From a virus (lineage: Duplodnaviria > Heunggongvirae > Uroviricota > Caudoviricetes): 12,615 nucleotides of DNA. The stretch lies in IMG/VR virus record IMGVR_UViG_2541047681_000005. One strand, written 5' to 3'. The translations under genes and the position numbers were made by a program. Position 1 is the first letter of the stretch. Each line of letters begins with the position of its first letter. The notes beneath the pieces are model-generated. The model searched no databases. It had not been told where the DNA came from and saw only the letters and a list, made by a program, of their open reading frames with translations. Positions 1,318 through 12,615 of the stretch are shown here, piece by piece.

Positions 1318-1595
1318 AAAAATCAGCCATCGTAATAACCATTTGATTTTTATAGGTGTACTGTTTTTTTATACACTGGCGAATCACTCTTAAAAATATG
1401 TAAAAAAGGCGTAAAAGTAAAATTTTATGCCTTTGCATCATAATGAATTAAAAGAGTTTTTATTCTCATTCCCCCTGCTTCTGTAAAACGACCGCCGCCA
1501 GTGTTTGCCATTCCACAAACACCCTGACACAATCCGACACAACCCAACCCAATAATCCACCCAATGACTCTTTAAGAAACAACAAAGGGGGAATT

Positions 1596-3795: not shown

Positions 3796-4095
3796 ATGAA
3801 ACTTAAATATTCTGGCTTAACTGCCAGTGGCAAAACTCGCACTAAATTCATGCGCGGTGATATTTACCGCGACCAGTACGGCGGCACGGTAATGATTAAG
3901 GGCGTGGAGGAACGGCGCGTAACCTACCGTCGTGAAGGCTACGAATATGATTGCGTGATGCCTGTTTATCAGTTCGATCGTGATTTTTCTCTGGTGCAGG
4001 CCGTACCGCGTAACGTGCCCACCAGCAGGGAGAAAGCACGCGCCAATATTCAGGAAATAAAAAAGATGCTTAACGTATTCAGGGGTAAGAAATGA
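3796..4095 (+). CDS. Hypothetical protein (99 aa)
   Basis: ATG at 3796 with RBS GGAGA 9 nt upstream; stop overlaps the primase start (ATGA). No family recognised. Confidence 0.55.
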   Translation: MKLKYSGLTASGKTRTKFMRGDIYRDQYGGTVMIKGVEERRVTYRREGYEYDCVMPVYQFDRDFSLVQAVPRNVPTSREKARANIQEIKKMLNVFRGKK

Positions 4096-5846
4096 AACTG
4101 GCACCGAACGTAAAAAAACAACCACGCGGAATAAAACACAAAGACACAGAGGTAATTATTTTCGCGGGTAGTGATGCGTGGTCACATGCAAAACAGTGGC
4201 AGGAGCAGGACGGCCCCGCATCCGGCGATAATGTGCCGCCTGTGTGGCTTGGGCCAAATCAGCTTGCCGAACTTGATGCGCTGAAAATTGTTCCGGATGG
4301 GAAAAAGCGCGTAAGGCTGTACCAGGCCGGAGAACTGGATTTAGTGGAGACCAAAAAGATTGGTCAGAAGCTGGCGGCGGCAGATATTCAGGACGCAAAT
4401 TTTTACCCTGATGGTATGCACGGTCAGAAGGTGGAGAACTGGCGCGAATATCTGGCCCGTGAGCGCCAGAATCTTTCTGATGGTCTGGTCATTGAGCTTC
4501 CGGTAAAGCAAAAGGCGCAACTTTCGCAGATGGCGGACAGTGAGCGCGCGCAGCTGCTTGCCGATCGCTTTGATGGCGTTTGCGTACATCCTGAAAGTGA
4601 AATCGTTCACGTATGGCGCGGCGGGGTATGGTGTCCGGTCAGCACAATGGAACTTAGCCGCGAAATGGTGGCGATCTATTCAGAGCACAGGGCCACTTTC
4701 AGCAAGCGCGTAATCAATAACGCCGTGGAAGCGTTAAAAGTTATTGCCGAACCAATGGGCGAGCCGTCCGGCGATTTGCTGCCGTTCGCCAATGGTGCGC
4801 TTGACCTGAAAACGGGGGAATTTTCCCCGCACACGCCGGAGAACTGGATCACCACGCACAACGGCATTGAGTACACGCCACCAGCACCAGGGGAGAACAT
4901 CCGCGATAACGCGCCAAACTTTCATAAATGGCTTAAGCACGCAGCCGGAAAAGACCCGCGCAAGATGATGCGTATATGTGCCGCGCTGTACATGATTATG
5001 GCGAACCGGTACGACTGGCAGATGTTTATTGAGGCCACCGGAGACGGCGGGAGCGGTAAAAGTACATTCACGCACATAGCCAGCCTTCTGGCAGGGAAAC
5101 AGAACACGGTAAGCGCTGAAATGACATCGCTTGATGATGCTGGTGGACGTGCGCAGGTTGTCGGGAGTCGTCTTATCGTCCTGGCTGACCAGCCGAAATA
5201 TACAGGCGAAGGAACGGGCATCAAGAAAATCACGGGCGGTGACCCCGTGGAAATTAACCCGAAATACGAAAAGCGTTTCACGGCTGTAATCAGGGCGGTG
5301 GTGCTGGCGACCAACAATAACCCGATGATATTCACCGAACGGGCCGGAGGTGTGGCACGTCGTCGCGTGATTTTCCGTTTCGACAATATCGTCAGTGAGG
5401 CCGAAAAAGACAGGGAGCTACCGGAAAAGATCGCGGCTGAAATCCCTGTCATTATCCGCCGATTGCTGGCGAACTTTACCGACCCTGAGAAGGCACGGGC
5501 TTTACTACTGGAACAGCGTGACGGTGATGAAGCACTGGCAATAAAGCAACAGACGGATCCGGTTATTGAGTTTTGCCAGTTCCTGAATTTTCTGGAGGAA
5601 GCGCGCGGCCTGATGATGGGGGGCGGTGGCGATTCAGTGAAGTACACGACCAGGAACAGCCTTTACCGCGTCTATCTGGCGTTTATGGCATACGCAGGCA
5701 GGAGCAAACCGCTAAACGTAAATGACTTTGGAAAGGCTATGAAGCCTGCCGCAAAAGTTTACGGACATGAATATATTACGCGGAAAGTTAAGGGGGTAAC
5801 GCAGACTAACGCAATAACAACAGACGAGTGCGACGCGTTTTTATAA
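4092..5846 (+). CDS. Replication primase/helicase, P4-alpha / D5-like family with P-loop NTPase domain
   Basis: 584-aa ORF with RBS AGGGG upstream; Walker A motif GDGGSGKST, followed by a hydrophobic strand (LIVLADQP) consistent with Walker B. Position after int-alpA and immediately before an iteron cluster matches satellite pri-rep genes. Confidence 0.9.
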   Translation: MKLAPNVKKQPRGIKHKDTEVIIFAGSDAWSHAKQWQEQDGPASGDNVPPVWLGPNQLAELDALKIVPDGKKRVRLYQAGELDLVETKKIGQKLAAADIQDANFYPDGMHGQKVENWREYLARERQNLSDGLVIELPVKQKAQLSQMADSERAQLLADRFDGVCVHPESEIVHVWRGGVWCPVSTMELSREMVAIYSEHRATFSKRVINNAVEALKVIAEPMGEPSGDLLPFANGALDLKTGEFSPHTPENWITTHNGIEYTPPAPGENIRDNAPNFHKWLKHAAGKDPRKMMRICAALYMIMANRYDWQMFIEATGDGGSGKSTFTHIASLLAGKQNTVSAEMTSLDDAGGRAQVVGSRLIVLADQPKYTGEGTGIKKITGGDPVEINPKYEKRFTAVIRAVVLATNNNPMIFTERAGGVARRRVIFRFDNIVSEAEKDRELPEKIAAEIPVIIRRLLANFTDPEKARALLLEQRDGDEALAIKQQTDPVIEFCQFLNFLEEARGLMMGGGGDSVKYTTRNSLYRVYLAFMAYAGRSKPLNVNDFGKAMKPAAKVYGHEYITRKVKGVTQTNAITTDECDAFL

Positions 5847-6134: not shown

Positions 6135-6413
6135 ATGCACACTTCAGGGAAATTTAATAAATCACTCAAAAAACGCAGAGACAGAACAGAACCGAAATAT
6201 CGCGCGTTAGACATGACAGAGCACGCTTTAAAGGTGGCAATCAGAACGATAGACCGCCACGCGGGGGAAGGATACGCGAAAGCACATCCCGAACTGATAA
6301 GCGCATTCATGACCACGACGGCGGCAAATTTTGCCACGCTGACAGAGCGGGAGATTGCCGAAGCGGAACAGGTAACAACCATCAACGTTAAAACCGGAGA
6401 GGTGGAATCATGA
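6135..6413 (+). CDS. Hypothetical protein (92 aa)
   Basis: ATG at 6135 with strong RBS GAGGGGG; stop overlaps the next start (ATGA). No family recognised. Confidence 0.55.
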   Translation: MHTSGKFNKSLKKRRDRTEPKYRALDMTEHALKVAIRTIDRHAGEGYAKAHPELISAFMTTTAANFATLTEREIAEAEQVTTINVKTGEVES

Positions 6414-6832
6414 CAGCACAGATAGCAGCTTACGGGCGGCTGGTGGACGACCCGCAGGTAAAACAGACCAGCAAGGGCACACCGATGACGCTGGCGCGTA
6501 TGGCGGTCCCCCTTCCGTGCAGCCAGGCAGATGACGGAACGGCGACGATGTGGTTATCCGTCCTGGCATTTGGCAGACAGGCCGAAGCACTGGAAAGGCA
6601 CCGCAAGGGTGAACTCCTGAGCGTGGCGGGTAACATGCAGATCAGCCAGTGGACTGGGCAGAACGGAGAAACGCGGCAGGGCTGGCAGGTTATCGCAGAC
6701 AGTGTAATCAGTGCGCGAACGGCGCGACTGGGCGGCAAAAAAGGTCAACAGGGCCAGGCTACTGACGCGCTGAACAGGGCAAAACAACAGGCGGGGAATG
6801 ATGATCCGTACGGGGATAACATACCGTTTTAA
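6410..6832 (+). CDS. SSB-like single-stranded DNA-binding protein (OB fold with SSB-type C-terminal tail)
   Basis: 140-aa ORF with RBS GGAGAGGTGG. N-terminal region aligns by eye with the E. coli SSB OB fold (GRLVDDPQV vs GNLGQDPEV; WLSVLAFGRQAEALERHRKGELLSV vs [25 protein letters not shown]). Gly/Gln-rich linker and C-terminal DDPYGDNIPF resemble the SSB DDDIPF tail. Confidence 0.65.
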   Translation: MTAQIAAYGRLVDDPQVKQTSKGTPMTLARMAVPLPCSQADDGTATMWLSVLAFGRQAEALERHRKGELLSVAGNMQISQWTGQNGETRQGWQVIADSVISARTARLGGKKGQQGQATDALNRAKQQAGNDDPYGDNIPF

Positions 6833-6848
6833 GCGACGAGAGACAGAA

Positions 6849-6870
6849 GCCGGAGCAATCCGGCTTTTTT
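6849..6870 (+). terminator. Rho-independent terminator after the SSB-like gene
   Basis: Hairpin GCCGGA-GCAA-TCCGGC followed by six T (6865..6870). Confidence 0.7.
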
Positions 6871-6908
6871 ACGGGTCCTCCTGGCGGGGTGGGCCTGAAC
6901 ACGGGGCG
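6871..6908 (+). other. Degenerate cos-like sequence (pseudo-cos)
   Basis: ACGGGTCCTCCTGGCGGGGTGGGCCTGAACACGGGGCGGGAAGCGCGG resembles the cosQ/cosN segment at 9313..9360 (ACGGGTCCTTTCCGG...ACGGGGCGGCGACCTCGCGG), and is preceded by the same terminator hairpin, but lacks the intact GGGCGGCGACCT core. Confidence 0.45.
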
Positions 6909-7044
6909 GGAAGCGCGGAAAAAAGCGCATTTTTGTGATTTTATCGTCATCATCATCATGAGCGTAATTTATTGTTTTTAATTGTTTTGATGCAAAAAAG
7001 ATGATGGTTGTGGTTAATTTTCGTTCGACATCTTTGCAGGCAGA

Positions 7045-7087
7045 TAAAAAAGCCCGATAAGGTCAGAGGTGGCTTATCGGGCTTTTG
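7045..7087. terminator. Bidirectional hairpin terminator candidate
   Basis: 11-bp perfect stem AGCCCGATAAG / CTTATCGGGCT with 11-nt loop, A-run upstream and T-run downstream. Confidence 0.5.
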
Positions 7088-7163
7088 CATATGAGGCTTT
7101 TTGGTGCACTGACACACATGAGCGGGATCATCATTTCATAATTTGCAACACAACTCAATATCA

Positions 7164-7212
7164 TTGTACAAAACGCAATCCTGATTATAATCAGAGCTGG
7201 ATGAACATCCAG
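7164..7212 (+). promoter_or_regulatory. Candidate promoter of the capsid operon with overlapping palindromic operators
   Basis: -35 TTGTAC (7164..7169), 16-bp spacer, -10 TATAAT (7186..7191). The -10 lies inside a perfect 14-bp palindrome CTGATTATAATCAG (7181..7194), followed by inverted repeat CTGGATG-AA-CATCCAG (7197..7212). Confidence 0.5.
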
Positions 7213-7247
7213 TTATGATTTTTTAAGTCGAAGAGGAATTTCTTACT

Positions 7248-7454
7248 ATGGCTGAAGAGAAAAAAGGCGGTGTTTCGGTGTACATAAGCCCCGAAATCGT
7301 GGAGGTGCTCAAGCAGCGCCACAAAAAAAACTATGAGGCTGGCGTGGCGGCTGGACTGGATCCGCTGATGACGCCGGAGCCGTCGATAGGTTCACTTGTA
7401 CGCTCTTATTTACTTGCGGCGCTTGGGATGCATAAAAATTATGGGGGTGAATAA
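7248..7454 (+). CDS. Hypothetical protein (68 aa), translationally coupled to the major capsid gene
   Basis: ATG at 7248 with RBS AGAGGA; its stop TAA overlaps the capsid ATG (TAATG). No family recognised. Confidence 0.55.
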   Translation: MAEEKKGGVSVYISPEIVEVLKQRHKKNYEAGVAAGLDPLMTPEPSIGSLVRSYLLAALGMHKNYGGE

Positions 7455-8509
7455 TGGCAGGCAAAGCAACGGCACTTAACACTAACCAGCTTTTCATGTA
7501 CCTGAATCGCGGGGATATTGCGGATTTTAAATTCAGCCCTCTGTTTACTACGCTGTTTTTCCCGAACGTGGCGACATTCAGCACGCAAAACATCATGCTG
7601 GATACCCTGGACATTGAAGAAGTCACCATGTCGGCGTTTTGTTCGCCTATGGTGGGTAGCCAGGTTCAGCGCGATAAAGGGTACGAAACCAGCACGATTA
7701 AACCTGGCTACATGAAGCCAAAGCACGAAATCGATCCAACGAAAACCATCATGCGCATGGCTGGAGAAGATCCGGCACAGCTTAACGACCCTACCTATCG
7801 CCGTATGCGCCTGATTACTGGCAATATGCGCCGCCAGATAAACGCCATAAAAGCGCGCGTGGAATGGCTGGCGGTAAATGCGGTAACGACCGGAAAAAAC
7901 ATCATTGAGGGCGAAGGCATAGAGCGCTATGAAATCGACTGGAAGATACCGGAAAAAAACATCATAGAGCAGGCCGACGGGAAAAAATGGTCAGAGCAGG
8001 ACAAAGAAACCCACGATCCAATCTATGATATCGAACTATACGCCGATCAGGCTGGTTGCCCCGCAAACGTCATGATTATGGGCGCTGAGGTATGGCGAAC
8101 GTTACGCAGCTTTAAAAAATTCCGTGAGCTGTACGATCTTTCCCGTGGTTCAGAATCCGCCGCCGAACTGGCCTGTAAAAACCTGGGCGAAGTGGTGAGC
8201 TTTAAAGGCTATCTTGGTGATCTGGCCCTTATCGTCTATTCCGGCAAATACACTGACAGCGATGGTACCGAAAAATATTTCCTTGAGCCTGATTTGCTGG
8301 TCCTGGGCAACACCAACAATAAAGGGCTGGTGGCCTATGGTGCGATAATGGATCAGGAAGCGGTAAGAACGGGCGCAACACAAAACATGTTTTACCCGAA
8401 AAACTGGATTGAGGACGGCGATCCGGCGATTGAGTACGTGCAGACACACAGTGCACCGCAGCCGGTACCGGCAGATATTCGCAAATTTGTTACCGTCAAA
8501 ATTGGTTAA
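7454..8509 (+). CDS. Major capsid protein, lambda gpE family
   Basis: 351-aa product aligns by eye along its length with lambda gpE (341 aa): [163 protein letters not shown] upstream. Confidence 0.9.
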   Translation: [351 protein letters not shown]

Positions 8510-8521
8510 CGGGGGGATTCT

Positions 8522-8857
8522 ATGGACACTCCATACATTGAGTTATTTGCAGGCAGTCAGCAGGTCGCCACGACGCTGGTACATTTTGCCGCTGATGCTG
8601 GCGTTATTCAGGAATTTACCCCGCTGATGCTGGCAGACAATGGCGAGTTTAAGCCGTGGGATGGTCAGGAATCTGGCAAGGCTGTTTATCTGACCTCGTA
8701 CCCTGTGGACACGTCAAAGCAGAAATCAGCACAGTGTTACAAGACGGGGATTTTCAATATTGCCGCCGTTAACTGGCCTGAGAGCGTCGACACCGATGCG
8801 AAAAAATGCGCCGCCTTTGCGGGTTCTGGCGTATCCGTTCAGCCGCTGGCCCGATAA
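8522..8857 (+). CDS. Head decoration protein, lambda gpD family
   Basis: 111-aa product (lambda gpD is 110 aa) with TPLMLADNGEFKPWDG vs TPLMLDTSSRKLVAWDG and YKTGIFNIAAVNWPESVDTDAKKCAAFAGSGVSVQ vs [44 protein letters not shown] upstream. Order is capsid then decoration, the reverse of lambda (D then E). Confidence 0.85.
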   Translation: MDTPYIELFAGSQQVATTLVHFAADAGVIQEFTPLMLADNGEFKPWDGQESGKAVYLTSYPVDTSKQKSAQCYKTGIFNIAAVNWPESVDTDAKKCAAFAGSGVSVQPLAR

Positions 8858-8869
8858 GCAGGGGGAACG

Positions 8870-9283
8870 ATGGCAACGAATGAAAGCGTCATGACGCTAC
8901 CGCTGGCGAGTAAATTTAAAGCCGAAGCGCGGGCAATGGCTGACAGAGGTTTATCAACCTACGAGGCCGTATATCAACTCAACAAACTGGAAGAGCAGGA
9001 CAAGCCGCGCGCTGATGCGATTATGGCGCTTCATGAACATAACGACTATCAGCCGCTGTTACGTGCAATGGCAAACGTGCCATGTATTAGCGTCGATAAT
9101 GCTCGTGAAATCCTGAACATGACCATAGAGCAGGAGCGCCCAAAGGTTGCGCCGGAGCTTACCGCAGCCTTTGAAAACTTTATGGACATGCACAGCCCGA
9201 AAGCCGTATCACCCGGCATGGCATACGACGGCAGAAACCAGGGCGATGAAGGCGACGTCGATCGCATACTGAAAACCATCTGA
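8870..9283 (+). CDS. Hypothetical protein (137 aa), last gene before cos
   Basis: ATG at 8870 with RBS AGGGGGA; followed by a strong terminator. No clear similarity to lambda FI or other remembered head proteins. Confidence 0.6.
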   Translation: MATNESVMTLPLASKFKAEARAMADRGLSTYEAVYQLNKLEEQDKPRADAIMALHEHNDYQPLLRAMANVPCISVDNAREILNMTIEQERPKVAPELTAAFENFMDMHSPKAVSPGMAYDGRNQGDEGDVDRILKTI

Positions 9284-9289
9284 CATAAG

Positions 9290-9312
9290 GCCGGAGAAAT
9301 CCGGCTTTTTTT
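9290..9312 (+). terminator. Rho-independent terminator after the capsid operon
   Basis: Hairpin GCCGGA-GAAA-TCCGGC followed by seven T (9306..9312); near-identical to the hairpin at 6849..6870. Confidence 0.75.
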
Positions 9313-9445
9313 ACGGGTCCTTTCCGGCATATGGACCCGTTACGGGGCGGCGACCTCGCGGGTTTTCGCTATTTATGACGTTTTTCCGTGAAGGTGACAC
9401 CACCACCACTTGATTAATATTTAACCATGCGGTTAAGGTAACATT
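9313..9445 (+). other. Lambda-type cos site (cosQ-like, cosN, short cosB) upstream of the TerS-like gene
   Basis: TACGGGTCCTTTCCGG...GTTACG|GGGCGGCGACCTCGCGGGTTTTCGCTATTTATGA closely matches the lambda cohesive-end region as remembered. Predicted 12-nt cohesive end GGGCGGCGACCT at 9345..9356. One R-site-like element (CGTTTTTCCGTG, about 9381..9392) and an AT-rich stretch follow. Confidence 0.75.
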
Positions 9446-9886
9446 ATGATTGATAAAGCTTGTTTTGTAAGTCAGCAGGAAATAGCTGAACATTTCAAGG
9501 TTAACAGAACCACTATTCGCGCATGGACCAAACAGGGGATGCCGTATCTTAATGCGGATCGCGGAAAGTCTGGCGGTTATCACATCGGGCATACATTGCT
9601 TTGGTCTTCAGGTAAAAGCCGTCTTGAGGCCATCAGATATCACGTAGAAACCAGTGCGCTGGAAAAAATTATGTTTGCCAGGCTGCTTTCATCTGAGCGT
9701 GACGAGTACTCCAGTGAAGAAACAGAACATCGATTTGATGAAGGTTTGCAGATTTACGGCTATTCACCGGAAGATGTGAGCAAGGCACGAAATAAAATGG
9801 CTGGCTTTCTGGCTGGGTGGCGTCATGCCGTAAGCGTTCGCCGTGCCAGCATGGAACAATCAGTCGTTACAGAACAGCAAAGTTAA
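9446..9886 (+). CDS. Small terminase-like protein, lambda Nu1-type DNA-binding N-terminus with divergent C-terminus (TerS/Rpp-like)
   Basis: 146-aa ORF about 90 bp downstream of cosN, as Nu1 is in lambda. N-terminus QQEIAEHFKVNRTTIRAWTKQGMPYL aligns with Nu1 KKQLADIFGASIRTIQNWQEQGMPVL (winged HTH). Shorter than Nu1 (181 aa) and the C-terminal region does not resemble Nu1's. Confidence 0.7.
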   Translation: MIDKACFVSQQEIAEHFKVNRTTIRAWTKQGMPYLNADRGKSGGYHIGHTLLWSSGKSRLEAIRYHVETSALEKIMFARLLSSERDEYSSEETEHRFDEGLQIYGYSPEDVSKARNKMAGFLAGWRHAVSVRRASMEQSVVTEQQS

Positions 9887-10461: not shown

Positions 10462-11154
10462 CTGGTTGATATTTTCGAAATTCGCCAGCGGCGAACATCG
10501 GGGAAACCAGCCTAACCCGTTGATATTTTCGGAAACCTCAATTTGAGGAAGTCGGCGCGGTAACTCGCTGAACTTAAAGCAAAGCGCAAAATTGCGCTTG
10601 CTGAATAATCATTATGATTACGCAGATGATTAAGGAATGACCGAAGGCGGAAATTCGCCTGTGGTTAATGGGGGAGTTGCAGATCTGCAACTCGACCATG
10701 AAACTACGGAAACTACCCGTAGTTTGGGTAGTAAGAGTAACACCCAGATTTTGGGGCTTACTCGTGATACCCAAATTTGGGGTATCGGTGGCAACCATAA
10801 CGACTTTCGTTACGGTTGATGCTTTTACCCCATTGGGGGAAAGGTATTACGATAATCATAACACCTACCGAACAGGTAAAGCCCACCAGCCTGATTAACG
10901 TTTAACCGGAAAAAAATTCCGGTAGGTGGGGATCCCCATATAGACATTAACGCCCCTCATGAATTGGTGCGCTTCCCCCTGGAAAGATGATCCGCCTGTA
11001 TATTTCTTGTGTCTATTTGTTCCACGTTGTTTCATACGGTGCACCGAACGGTGTAGTTAATGGTGTAGTCAATTTGCGATTTTTGGCACTTTTTCAGTGT
11101 AGATTATTTAATTAAATCAATGGTTTGTCTTGATATAGTGATAAAAGGACATAT
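10462..11154. other. Palindrome-dense non-coding tract between the last satellite ORF and phoQ (possible attR region or structured RNA)
   Basis: No convincing ORF. Direct repeat TAAC-nGTTGATATTTTCG-AAA at about 10459 and 10513. Hairpin-forming palindromes roughly every 30 bp, e.g. AAGCGCAAAATTGCGCTT, GTTGCAGATCTGCAAC, GATACCCAAATTTGGGGTATC, CCGGAAAAAAATTCCGG, TGGGGATCCCCA, CGGTGCACCG. Tandem GGTGTAGT(T/C)AAT at 11050..11073. Confidence 0.4.
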
Positions 11155-12615
11155 TTATTCATCTTTCGGCGCAGAATGCTGGCGACCAAAAATCACTTCC
11201 ATCCGCGCACCGCCCAGCATGCTCTCTCCGGCGACGATTTTACCCTCATATTGCTCGGTGATTTCGCGGGCTACCGCCAGCCCCACACCTTGCCCAGGGC
11301 GTAAAGTATCAACCCGTTGACCACGGTCGAAAATGACCTCTCGCTTGCTTAATGGAATACCGGGGCCATCATCCTCGACCACAATATAGAGATGCTCGTC
11401 GGTTTGCCTTGCAGAAATTTCGACAAACTCGAGGCAATATTTACAGGCGTTATCCAGCACGTTGCCCATCACTTCGACAAAATCATTCTGCTCACCAACA
11501 AAGCTGATTTCTGGCGAGATATCGAGAGAGATATTGACCCCTTTGCGTTGATACACTTTGTTCAGCGCCGAGGTGAGATTGTCCAACAGTGGCGCGACCG
11601 GATGCAGCTCGCGGCTAAGCAATGTCCCGCCGCGCATACTGGCACGATGCAGGTAGTAGCCAATTTGCTGTGAAATGCGGCTGATTTGCTCCAGCATTAC
11701 CGGCTCAGCATCACTGACGCTCATCTTCTCACTACGCAGAGAACGCAGCGTACTTTGCAGCACCGCCAGTGGCGTTTTCAGACTATGGGTCAGGTCGGTG
11801 AGCGTTGTACGATATTTGTCGTAACGTTCGCGTTCACTTTTTAACAGTCGGTTCAGGTTTCGTACCAGACTGGTCAGTTCTCGCGTTGTGGCTGGATTGA
11901 GCAATTCACGGTTATGTTCTTCCAGTTCGCGGACTTCTTTTGCCAGGGCTTCGATGGGGCGTAAACTCCACCAGGCGGCGACCCACAGCAGCGGGATCAC
12001 TAACAGCAGATTGGCTGAGAGCACATAGATAAACCAGCTCCAGACCATATAGGAACTTTTTAGCTCCACCGGAATGGTATCCACCACCACAATGGTTAAC
12101 TTTGGCATCCGCGATGTTGCCGGGTAGACGTTTACCGCCACCGAGTGGGTCATCTCCGCGTCGTCATCATCTTCCCGCACTTCCTGCAACTGTTGCTGTA
12201 TCGAATGATCTCCACTCAGCAAGAGGCTGGTATCGTTAACATCCGCTTCAATTTCATGAAAACCATTCGATTTCAGCCAGTCAGGCTGGATCATCTTCAT
12301 CAGCCAGGGCACGTCACGTTGCGCCCATAAAAGCTGCCCGTTCTCATCATAAATTAGTGTCATCGTGGGGCTTTGCTTGTCGATATTTTCGGGTAACTCG
12401 ACATGCAACTTATTGTTTTCCCACTTCGCAAGGGTATAGAACAGATTGCTCTCGCCACGTAACAGCCGAAACGTGGTTTTATCGAAACTGACGCTATAAC
12501 CGATCAGCGCAACCATTCCGTAGGCAAGCGAAAGCACCAATACTACTGCTGCCGTTGCTAACAGAAAACGTACCCGCAGCGAGAGCGGGAAAAAAAGATG
12601 CAGTAATTTTTTCAT
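11155..12615 (-). CDS. phoQ: Sensor histidine kinase PhoQ (PhoP/PhoQ two-component system), complete
   Basis: 486-aa minus-strand ORF whose ATG is the last codon of the window. Two transmembrane segments, periplasmic acidic cluster EDDDDAE, H-box [15 protein letters not shown] and G-box DDGPGIP; reads as full-length Escherichia/Shigella-type PhoQ. Confidence 0.97.

Follow-up and report, generated by a model that had tools for sequence, protein, structure and literature searches.

The 12,615-nucleotide stretch analysed here (IMG/VR record IMGVR_UViG_2541047681_000005; hereafter the window) is a phage-inducible chromosomal island (PICI) of the EcCICFT073 type, an Escherichia coli phage satellite flanked by roxA and phoQ. 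Its four-gene capsid operon occupies positions 7248–9283 of the plus strand. The first open reading frame (ORF) (7248–7454; phrog_3255, E 8.5e-46) encodes a 68-residue homologue of c1498 and is preceded by a Shine–Dalgarno GAGG, read from the sequence at 7233–7236 on the plus strand, within AAGAGGAA, which is kept in relatives. Its stop codon overlaps the start of the gene encoding the major capsid protein, a c1499 homologue of the lambda gpE type (7454–8509; phrog_29, E 3e-108; PF03864 on homologues). Genes for a gpD-type head decoration protein (8522–8857; c1500 homologue; phrog_49, E 2.6e-27) and a 137-residue protein (8870–9283; c1501 homologue; phrog_1999, E 1.4e-61) complete the operon. 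Upstream of these genes, at 7164–7214, lies a conserved σ70 promoter whose start site is probably covered by an operator for the host repressor LexA.

Conservation of the upstream region was followed in 52 distinct sequences, derived from 80 IMG/VR loci fetched via the 68-residue protein and from three Salmonella loci. The promoter joins a putative −35 hexamer, TTGTAC (7164–7169, plus strand; in most relatives TTGCAC or TTGCAT), across a 16-nt spacer to the −10 hexamer TATAAT (7186–7191, plus strand), from which a start at approximately 7197–7199 is predicted. Together the hexamers match the consensus at 9 of 12 positions; the −35 element alone matches at only three of six, and a simple promoter scan hence overlooked it. 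The pattern TTG-N19-21-TATAAT occurs once on the two strands of the window, at 7164 (0.35 expected), and the TTG of the putative −35 is also where the feature singled out in a preliminary description of this DNA begins. Among the distinct relatives, TATAAT is kept in 50 of 52, a TTGCxx −35 in 51 and the 16-nt spacer in all 52; conservation extends from about 7128 as far as the start codon. The same −35/16/−10 frame aligns in Salmonella, in an E. coli subclade typified by locus L088 and in Edwardsiella, with TAAAAT aligned at −10 in the last two.

Two strong terminators precede this site. The first, T1, follows the SSB gene and is a perfect palindrome, AGCCGGAGCAATCCGGCT, trailed by six T residues (6848–6871, plus strand; predicted fold −15 to −20 kcal/mol, z −2.8); its CFT073 equivalent was also flagged as terminator-like. 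The second, T2, is a terminator-shaped inverted repeat, GCCCGATAAG...CTTATCGGGC (7041–7093; −25.6 kcal/mol, z −2.7), which is kept in E. coli relatives. An A run lies on its upstream side and a T run on its downstream side; of the two strands, the minus has the better U tract (T6, against T4 on the plus strand). The approximately 170 bp between them (6872–7040) are A/T-rich, contain no convincing ORF or Rfam match, and are present in only some relatives; elsewhere T1 abuts T2. Because it is the sole good σ70 match within the gap, follows both terminators, lies 57 nt before the first operon gene and is conserved, the 7164 site is very probably the capsid-operon promoter, as the preliminary description had proposed. 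A scan-flagged upstream alternative, TTCATA-18-TATCAT (7135–7164), was rejected: its −10 is not kept in Salmonella, and its bases are better accounted for by an inverted repeat of the TTGCA type described below.

The preliminary description had drawn attention to a TATAAT inside a perfect 14-bp palindrome followed by CTGGATG-AA-CATCCAG, and both elements are present: palindrome 1, CTGATTATAATCAG, at 7181–7194, and palindrome 2, CTGGATGAACATCCAG, at 7197–7212. They are adjacent, 2 nt apart, rather than nested in one another; it is within a longer imperfect repeat (7189–7203/7206–7220) that palindrome 2 is nested. Single perfect palindromes with 7-nt arms are not rare here: the window has 12 (spacers of 0–4 nt), where Markov-1 random windows have 4.4 ± 2.3. 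A pair no more than 5 nt apart turns up in only 0.3% of random windows, and the observation is real and non-random.

Palindrome 2 has the dyad CTG-N10-CAG, the spacing of the E. coli SOS box. The predicted LexA box, AGCTGGATGAACATCCAGTT (7195–7214), contains the palindrome, begins 4 nt after the conserved −10 and extends from about −3 to +17 of the predicted start; judged from this placement, it occupies a standard position for repression. Candidate sites were scored with a matrix built from 18 published E. coli LexA sites (PMC3009722, Table 4), and the heterology index (HI) was calculated by the Berg–von Hippel/Lewis formula. The window 20-mer has an HI of 8.1–8.7, while the commonest relative, which is also the sequence of EcCICFT073 (AACTGGATGAACATCCAGTT), scores 7.0–7.4 and the Salmonella boxes 6.7–8.2. 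Under leave-one-out scoring, known sites range from 0.6 to 12.8 (ruvA 8.5, cho 7.9, uvrB 9.1, dinB 11.8 and polB 12.6), and the window box falls inside the range of established functional LexA sites. So good a site is expected 0.8 times per Mb of composition-matched random sequence, or 0.01 times per window, and a random perfect 7-2-7 palindrome reaches the score of the box with a probability of 2–5e-4. In the 80 loci (555 kb), which were picked through the 68-residue protein and not through the box, sites with HI ≤10 lie at the box position in 79 of 80 and occur once elsewhere.

The pattern of variation also follows the LexA dyad. The CTG and CAG triplets are invariant in the 52 distinct relatives except for one sequence with a 1-nt insertion, and the CTGGAT...CAG core departs from invariance only in that sequence and through a C to A change at one position in four others. 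This change (ATCCAG to ATACAG) brings the site nearer to the LexA consensus (HI 5.9–6.6), yet breaks a pair of the RNA hairpin considered below. Nine further PICI capsid operons were fetched via capsid homologues (52–64% identity). One of these, from a Lelliottia PICI with a 75-residue leader ORF, has a box, CACTGTTTTTTCATACAGTT (HI 5.8/8.1), in the same MAFFT alignment columns as that of the window. The Lelliottia box differs at 8 of 16 core bases, keeps CTG and CAG in the canonical form CTGT-N8-ACAG and has lost the potential to form a hairpin, as one would expect if it is recognition by LexA, rather than secondary structure, that is maintained.

Among chromosomal SOS boxes, those of ruvAB and cho (ydjQ) are the closest comparisons, sharing with palindrome 2 the CTG-N10-CAG dyad, a G in place of T at the fourth position and a similar HI. 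In the ruvA box, CGCTGGATATCTATCCAGCA, the outer six bases on each side (CTGGAT...ATCCAG) are identical to those of the window, and the central four differ, GAAC here and ATCT in ruvA (PMC3009722). The window box differs from chromosomal SOS boxes in lying on a mobile satellite rather than at a repair gene, and LexA binding to it is a prediction. Two other resemblances were set aside. Palindrome 1 is a poor LexA box, with the spacing CTG-N8-CAG, an HI of 14.4 and C/G ends that are not conserved; a likeness of ATGATTATAATCAT to a Fur box founders on an unsuitable half-site spacing.

Several observations weigh against LexA control. Each half-site has G/C as its fourth base where the consensus has T/A, and strong boxes have a centre richer in A/T; the affinity of LexA for this box may therefore be modest. 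The central 10 bases, GATGAACATC, are A/T at 6 of 10 positions and match the consensus at 5 of 10; the real sites of ruvA and sulA are similarly poor. In the sizeable E. coli L088-type subclade the box is missing or degenerate, its right half having been deleted. Edwardsiella, Serratia, Cedecea and PICI capsid operons still further removed lack it altogether, so that an operon of this kind can do without LexA control. In plaque assays, interference of EcCICFT073 with lambda is seen even when SOS is not deliberately induced (PMC6092414), and basal expression would therefore be needed if the downstream rpp gene depended on this promoter, though a terminator separates the two. Finally, palindrome 2 also fits an RNA hairpin, for which the related sequences are close and the covariation statistics only moderate.

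In the E. coli and Salmonella clades the box is also the core of a longer hairpin. In most relatives its dyad is extended to 15-nt arms followed by a T run, an extension that is not known from chromosomal SOS boxes. The window version, AATCAgaGCTGGATG-aa-CATCCAGttaTGATT followed by TTTT (7189–7224, plus strand), has the shape of an intrinsic terminator. Its arms (7189–7203 and 7206–7220) are imperfect, and the left one reaches into the promoter, where it shares bases with palindrome 1 (right half) and with the −10 (last 3 nt). Perfect 15-nt arms are found in most relatives, including EcCICFT073, and the CFT073 hairpin, with 14 pairs, was flagged as terminator-like. The predicted fold, compared with shuffled sequence, is approximately −13 kcal/mol for the window (z −2.9) and −18 kcal/mol for the consensus (z −4.9). 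Across the alignment 91% of cells are paired, and double-sided changes are seen in three pairs: C–G to T–A at 7192/7217, T–A/G–C/C–G at 7194/7215 and A–T to G–C at 7195/7214; a G·U intermediate also occurs. The number of double changes observed was reached in 0 of 500 shuffles, which, for sequences so closely related, constitutes moderate evidence. The T run is kept in Salmonella despite an otherwise different leader. The hairpin layer is real in sequence, and its function is uncertain.

Could palindrome 2 be secondary structure only, either a terminator against read-through from the early operon or a stabilising hairpin at the 5′ end of the mRNA, with a coincidental likeness to a LexA box? 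The 15-nt arms with their T run, the compensatory changes with the G·U intermediate, and a fold well below that of shuffled sequence would all be explained. However, Lelliottia keeps a LexA-type dyad in place where the hairpin has gone, and the recurrent C to A change breaks a central G–C pair and improves the LexA score. The hairpin is likewise absent in the L088 and Edwardsiella homologues. Its lower stem, AAUCA/UGAUU, is A/U-rich, and only 4 of 14 pairs in CFT073 are G–C, short of the G+C-rich stem of an intrinsic terminator; two strong terminators already stand upstream, and an RNA initiated from the adjacent −10 would begin too late to include the left arm. We consider a purely structural role unlikely. 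In addition to a LexA operator, the simplest reading of the hairpin is that it may be an insulating terminator: the left arm holds the last three bases of the −10, and therefore only transcripts arriving from upstream would contain the whole structure. This role seems redundant after T1 and T2, and the A/U-rich lower stem also speaks against it.

A promoter followed at once by a terminator-shaped hairpin, with head genes downstream, in an element whose helpers are lambdoid phages (PMC6092414), recalls the lambdoid PR′ promoter and its antiterminator Q. By analogy, a constitutive near-consensus promoter would be followed within 30 nt by a hairpin and T run, which a helper Q protein would override, tying capsid expression to helper late transcription. 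At this locus, unlike PR′, the left arm of the hairpin overlaps the −10, so that the promoter's own transcript cannot hold the full structure, and the alternative upstream promoter, TTCATA-18-TATCAT, is not shared by Salmonella. Neither a Q-binding nor a pause element was identified, and the hairpin is missing from related operons. A search of phage DNA with 7120–7250 yielded nothing at E ≤1 beyond a 26-nt chance hit; phage late-promoter regions show no similarity, and the promoter is not borrowed from a helper late region. Q-type antitermination was rejected on these grounds as highly improbable.

Palindrome 1 presents a different case from palindrome 2. It is perfect in 32 of the 52 relatives around a constant core, TGATTATAATCA, and its outer pair is C–G in 12, A–T in 20 and unpaired in 20. 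Eight of the 12 core bases are self-complementary merely through the AT that precedes TATAAT. Since the −10 explains most of the symmetry and the outer pair varies freely, the evidence for palindrome 1 as an operator is weak.

The same symmetry places a consensus TATAAT on both strands (7186–7191 on the plus and 7184–7189 on the minus strand), and palindrome 1 could be the core of a bidirectional promoter, a possibility that would complement LexA control at palindrome 2 rather than compete with it. A leftward start at about 7177 would then yield a short divergent RNA ending at T2, whose U tract is the better one on the minus strand, and the LexA box would cover the −35 region of the leftward promoter. 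According to PMC10268837, which cites Warman et al. (2021), symmetric −10 regions commonly give divergent starts 7–25 bp apart; the −10 of such promoters reads TATAAT on both strands by its own symmetry, as here, but the 2-nt offset of the hexamers in the window predicts starts about 21 nt apart, against a commonest distance of 18. The leftward −35 matches at only three of six positions, the putative RNA is unremarkable in structure apart from T2 (z −1.6) and has no Rfam match, and 7094–7127 is not conserved. Divergent transcription is conceivable on this evidence, at rather low probability.

Upstream of the two palindromes lies a further inverted repeat, TTGCA-N5-TGCAA, in two copies. One, TTGCAcaaaaTGCAA, spans the −35 (7164–7178, plus strand); it is degenerate in the window (TTGTAcaaaaCGCAA) and is found as well in the promoters of loci L088, L089 and L093. 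The other, TTTCAtaattTGCAA (7134–7148, plus strand), has one mismatch, lies 30 bp upstream of the −35 copy, and is invariant in E. coli relatives and nearly so in Salmonella. The motif recurs in Salmonella, Edwardsiella (two copies), L088, Lelliottia and a distant E. coli promoter, and the dyads explain the conserved block upstream of the −35. They could be the site of a second regulator, encoded by the PICI or its helper.

The preliminary description had suggested that a dimeric regulator, possibly helper-encoded, acts at the palindromes themselves, and a PICI- or helper-encoded protein other than LexA could in principle switch the capsid operon at palindrome 1, palindrome 2 or both during helper growth. 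The palindromes are conserved and located on the −10 and +1, some non-LexA factor probably acts at the TTGCA-N5-TGCAA dyads, and the PICI encodes candidates in AlpA, a 428-residue Bro-N/repressor-like protein and a PerC-like protein. At palindrome 2, however, such a regulator would make the LexA fit a 2–5e-4 coincidence, one that recurs with a different sequence in Lelliottia, and at palindrome 1 the outer pair is free to vary and the −10 accounts for the remainder. Nothing resembling the region was found in helper-phage DNA, no candidate emerged as the regulator, and the 68-residue leader ORF gave no significant DNA-binding fold. The notion that this ORF encodes a ribbon-helix-helix autoregulator was discarded: its AlphaFold model has a pLDDT of 71, the best Foldseek match is the DNA-binding domain of TraM at E 0.54, and searches gave no Pfam match, no significant fold match and no PDB profile match. 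A non-LexA switch at the palindromes is thus doubtful. A plausible repressor site at palindrome 2 stands from the earlier suggestion, with host LexA as the best candidate instead of a helper protein; the general idea of a PICI or helper factor may apply at different bases, the dyads being the best place to seek one.

The capsid operon is closed by a terminator of the same hairpin type as T1, GCCGGAgaaaTCCGGC followed by seven T residues (9290–9312, plus strand, read from the sequence), and the two hairpins are nearly identical: GCCGGAG(A/C)AATCCGGC. Downstream, at about 9340–9400, is a sequence that we take to be lambda-cosN-like (GGGGCGGCGACCTCGCGGGTTTTCGCTATTTATGA), and a TerS-like winged helix-turn-helix protein is encoded at the position of rpp (9446–9886). 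The 9290–9312 terminator therefore places cos and the TerS-like gene outside the operon with the LexA box, and the capsid/cos/TerS module of the preliminary description is probably smaller, comprising the four operon genes. The last of these, the 137-residue protein, has no Pfam match and resembles weakly the C-terminal part of a head maturation protease family. In the distant PICI capsid operons L090–L095, the equivalent position, 3′ of the decoration gene, is occupied by a gene for an AlpA-family (PF05930) protein of 114–145 residues.

Elsewhere in the window are genes for an integrase (1–1230), AlpA (1596–1784; PF05930, E 3e-18), a primase (4092–5846) and SSB (6410–6832), and at the right end phoQ (11155–12615, minus strand). 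The gene order is the same in CFT073 and in the O157-type strain F690. Positions 7000–7460 match 598 of 5426 complete E. coli genomes (~11%), CFT073 among them at 86% identity. The 68-residue protein has 25 homologues, in E. coli and Salmonella; in species-representative genomes neither its profile nor the DNA pattern GATTATAATN5CTGGATN4ATCCAG found a match, and the island is strain-level in E. coli and Salmonella. At E ≤1, no part of the window matched an Rfam family. Four perfect palindromes cluster at 10582–10725, towards the right end of the island (AAGCGCAAAATTGCGCTT, TAATCATTATGATTA, AGTTGCAGATCTGCAACT and AAACTACCCGTAGTTT), the second of which has the TAATCA/TGATTA half-sites of palindrome 1 in reversed arrangement.

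A second LexA-box-like 20-mer, TACTGTTTTTTTATACACTG (1359–1378, minus strand; HI 5.7), lies in the int–alpA intergenic region, about 220 nt upstream of alpA. One of its half-sites is CAC rather than CAG, and it forms part of a GTGTA-N11-TACAC inverted repeat. It recurs at L086:1029, L084:1956 and L085:6261, being kept in CFT073, an O157-type strain and the Sakai Sp7 capsid-forming PICI (cf-PICI). According to published work, SOS does not induce alpA in the absence of a helper. Flanking the site, upstream of alpA, are runs of short direct repeats at 1265–1315 and 1526–1552 (GAAACAAC/GACACAAC/GAACAAC and GACACAA-type); these repeats resemble iterons and could be arm sites for Int, AlpA or Xis.

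Sakai Sp7 (L085:4712–20172, O157:H7) occupies the same roxA/phoQ att site and shares the left half of the island, from int through SSB and pchE. Its morphogenesis module differs, consisting of capsid, protease, portal, adaptor, TerS and TerL genes as in a capsid-forming PICI, with no LexA box upstream of the capsid gene; comparison with the window indicates that the right half was exchanged as a module. RNA-seq of Sakai and PA20 covers this different capsid module at the same att site, and the O157:H7 SOS transcriptome (PMC5931665) is uninformative for the present family because Sp7, which shows no induction there, carries the cf-PICI capsid module, which has no box. In the Edwardsiella tarda locus L087 and in L092, a set of phage genes (portal, protease, decoration and capsid) comes immediately after the capsid and decoration genes of the PICI, an arrangement that looks like the helper-embedded PICI of PMC10111431.

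Sequence features, their conservation and the statistical fit to the LexA model lead to a mechanism in which LexA binding, the start site, SOS inducibility and termination are predicted. We judge it probable that 7164–7214 is the conserved σ70 promoter from which the PICI capsid operon is transcribed, and that its start is covered by an operator for host LexA. RNA polymerase would use TTGTAC (TTGCAC in relatives), the 16-nt spacer and TATAAT, and would initiate at about 7197–7199. In an undamaged cell, a LexA dimer bound to CTG-N10-CAG (7195–7214) would block open complex formation or promoter escape. DNA damage would activate RecA, LexA would cleave itself and the operon would be derepressed, the same signal inducing lambdoid helper prophages. 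Because the box has the strength of those of ruvA and cho, repression would be partial; the preliminary description had envisaged tight repression or activation, where repression at a moderate, ruvA-like level is predicted. In the E. coli and Salmonella clades, read-through from the AlpA-driven early operon would carry the full hairpin and be terminated, while transcripts from the capsid promoter, without the left arm, would escape, and the operon would then depend on its own promoter.

A more elaborate version of this mechanism, offered tentatively, is a three-layer switch that combines the LexA operator over the start, the nesting of that operator in a terminator hairpin and the TTGCA-N5-TGCAA dyads as sites for a PICI or helper regulator. 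Expression of the capsid module would then require an SOS signal together with one from the satellite or helper. PICIs of the EcCICFT073 type are described as induced in an AlpA- and helper-dependent manner, and not via the SOS response itself (PMC6092414). No phenotype is reported, and no regulation known, for c1499 and c1500, which encode the capsid and decoration proteins (PMC6092414 and PMC10460865), and published work on these islands found c1498–c1501 replaceable without loss of transfer. In the literature on Gram-negative PICIs we found neither this capsid-operon promoter nor a LexA site in it described, and no RNA-seq of such an element was found.

The nearest functional parallel is in the pathogenicity islands of Staphylococcus aureus (SaPIs), whose host LexA recognises the motif CGAAC-N4-GTTCG. 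Their packaging module, SaPI operon I, is under LexA control (Ubeda 2007, as cited in PMC6739421 and PMC6092414). The likeness lies in the outline: a packaging or capsid module (capsid remodelling, in the SaPI case) has its own promoter, apart from the circuit that governs induction as a whole, and answers to the SOS repressor of the host. The differences are the Gram-positive host and the unrelated proteins and induction logic (Stl in SaPIs, AlpA here); moreover, LexA control has been shown experimentally for SaPIs and is predicted from sequence for the window.

With LexA as the best candidate, the capsid operon is predicted to be coupled to the SOS response, by which helper prophages are induced too, and therefore not, as had been proposed, to helper infection as such. 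The regulator to consider first is accordingly the host's own LexA, and a helper or PICI factor is to be sought at the TTGCA-N5-TGCAA dyads rather than at the palindromes originally flagged. A LexA operator predicts that the capsid genes would be expressed during the SOS response independently of AlpA. Were the three-layer switch to prove true, it would represent a direct SOS input into a Gram-negative PICI family described as AlpA- and helper-induced (PMC6092414). If LexA control is true, the capsid operon would be a Gram-negative parallel to SaPI operon I, with unrelated satellites converging on the host damage signal.

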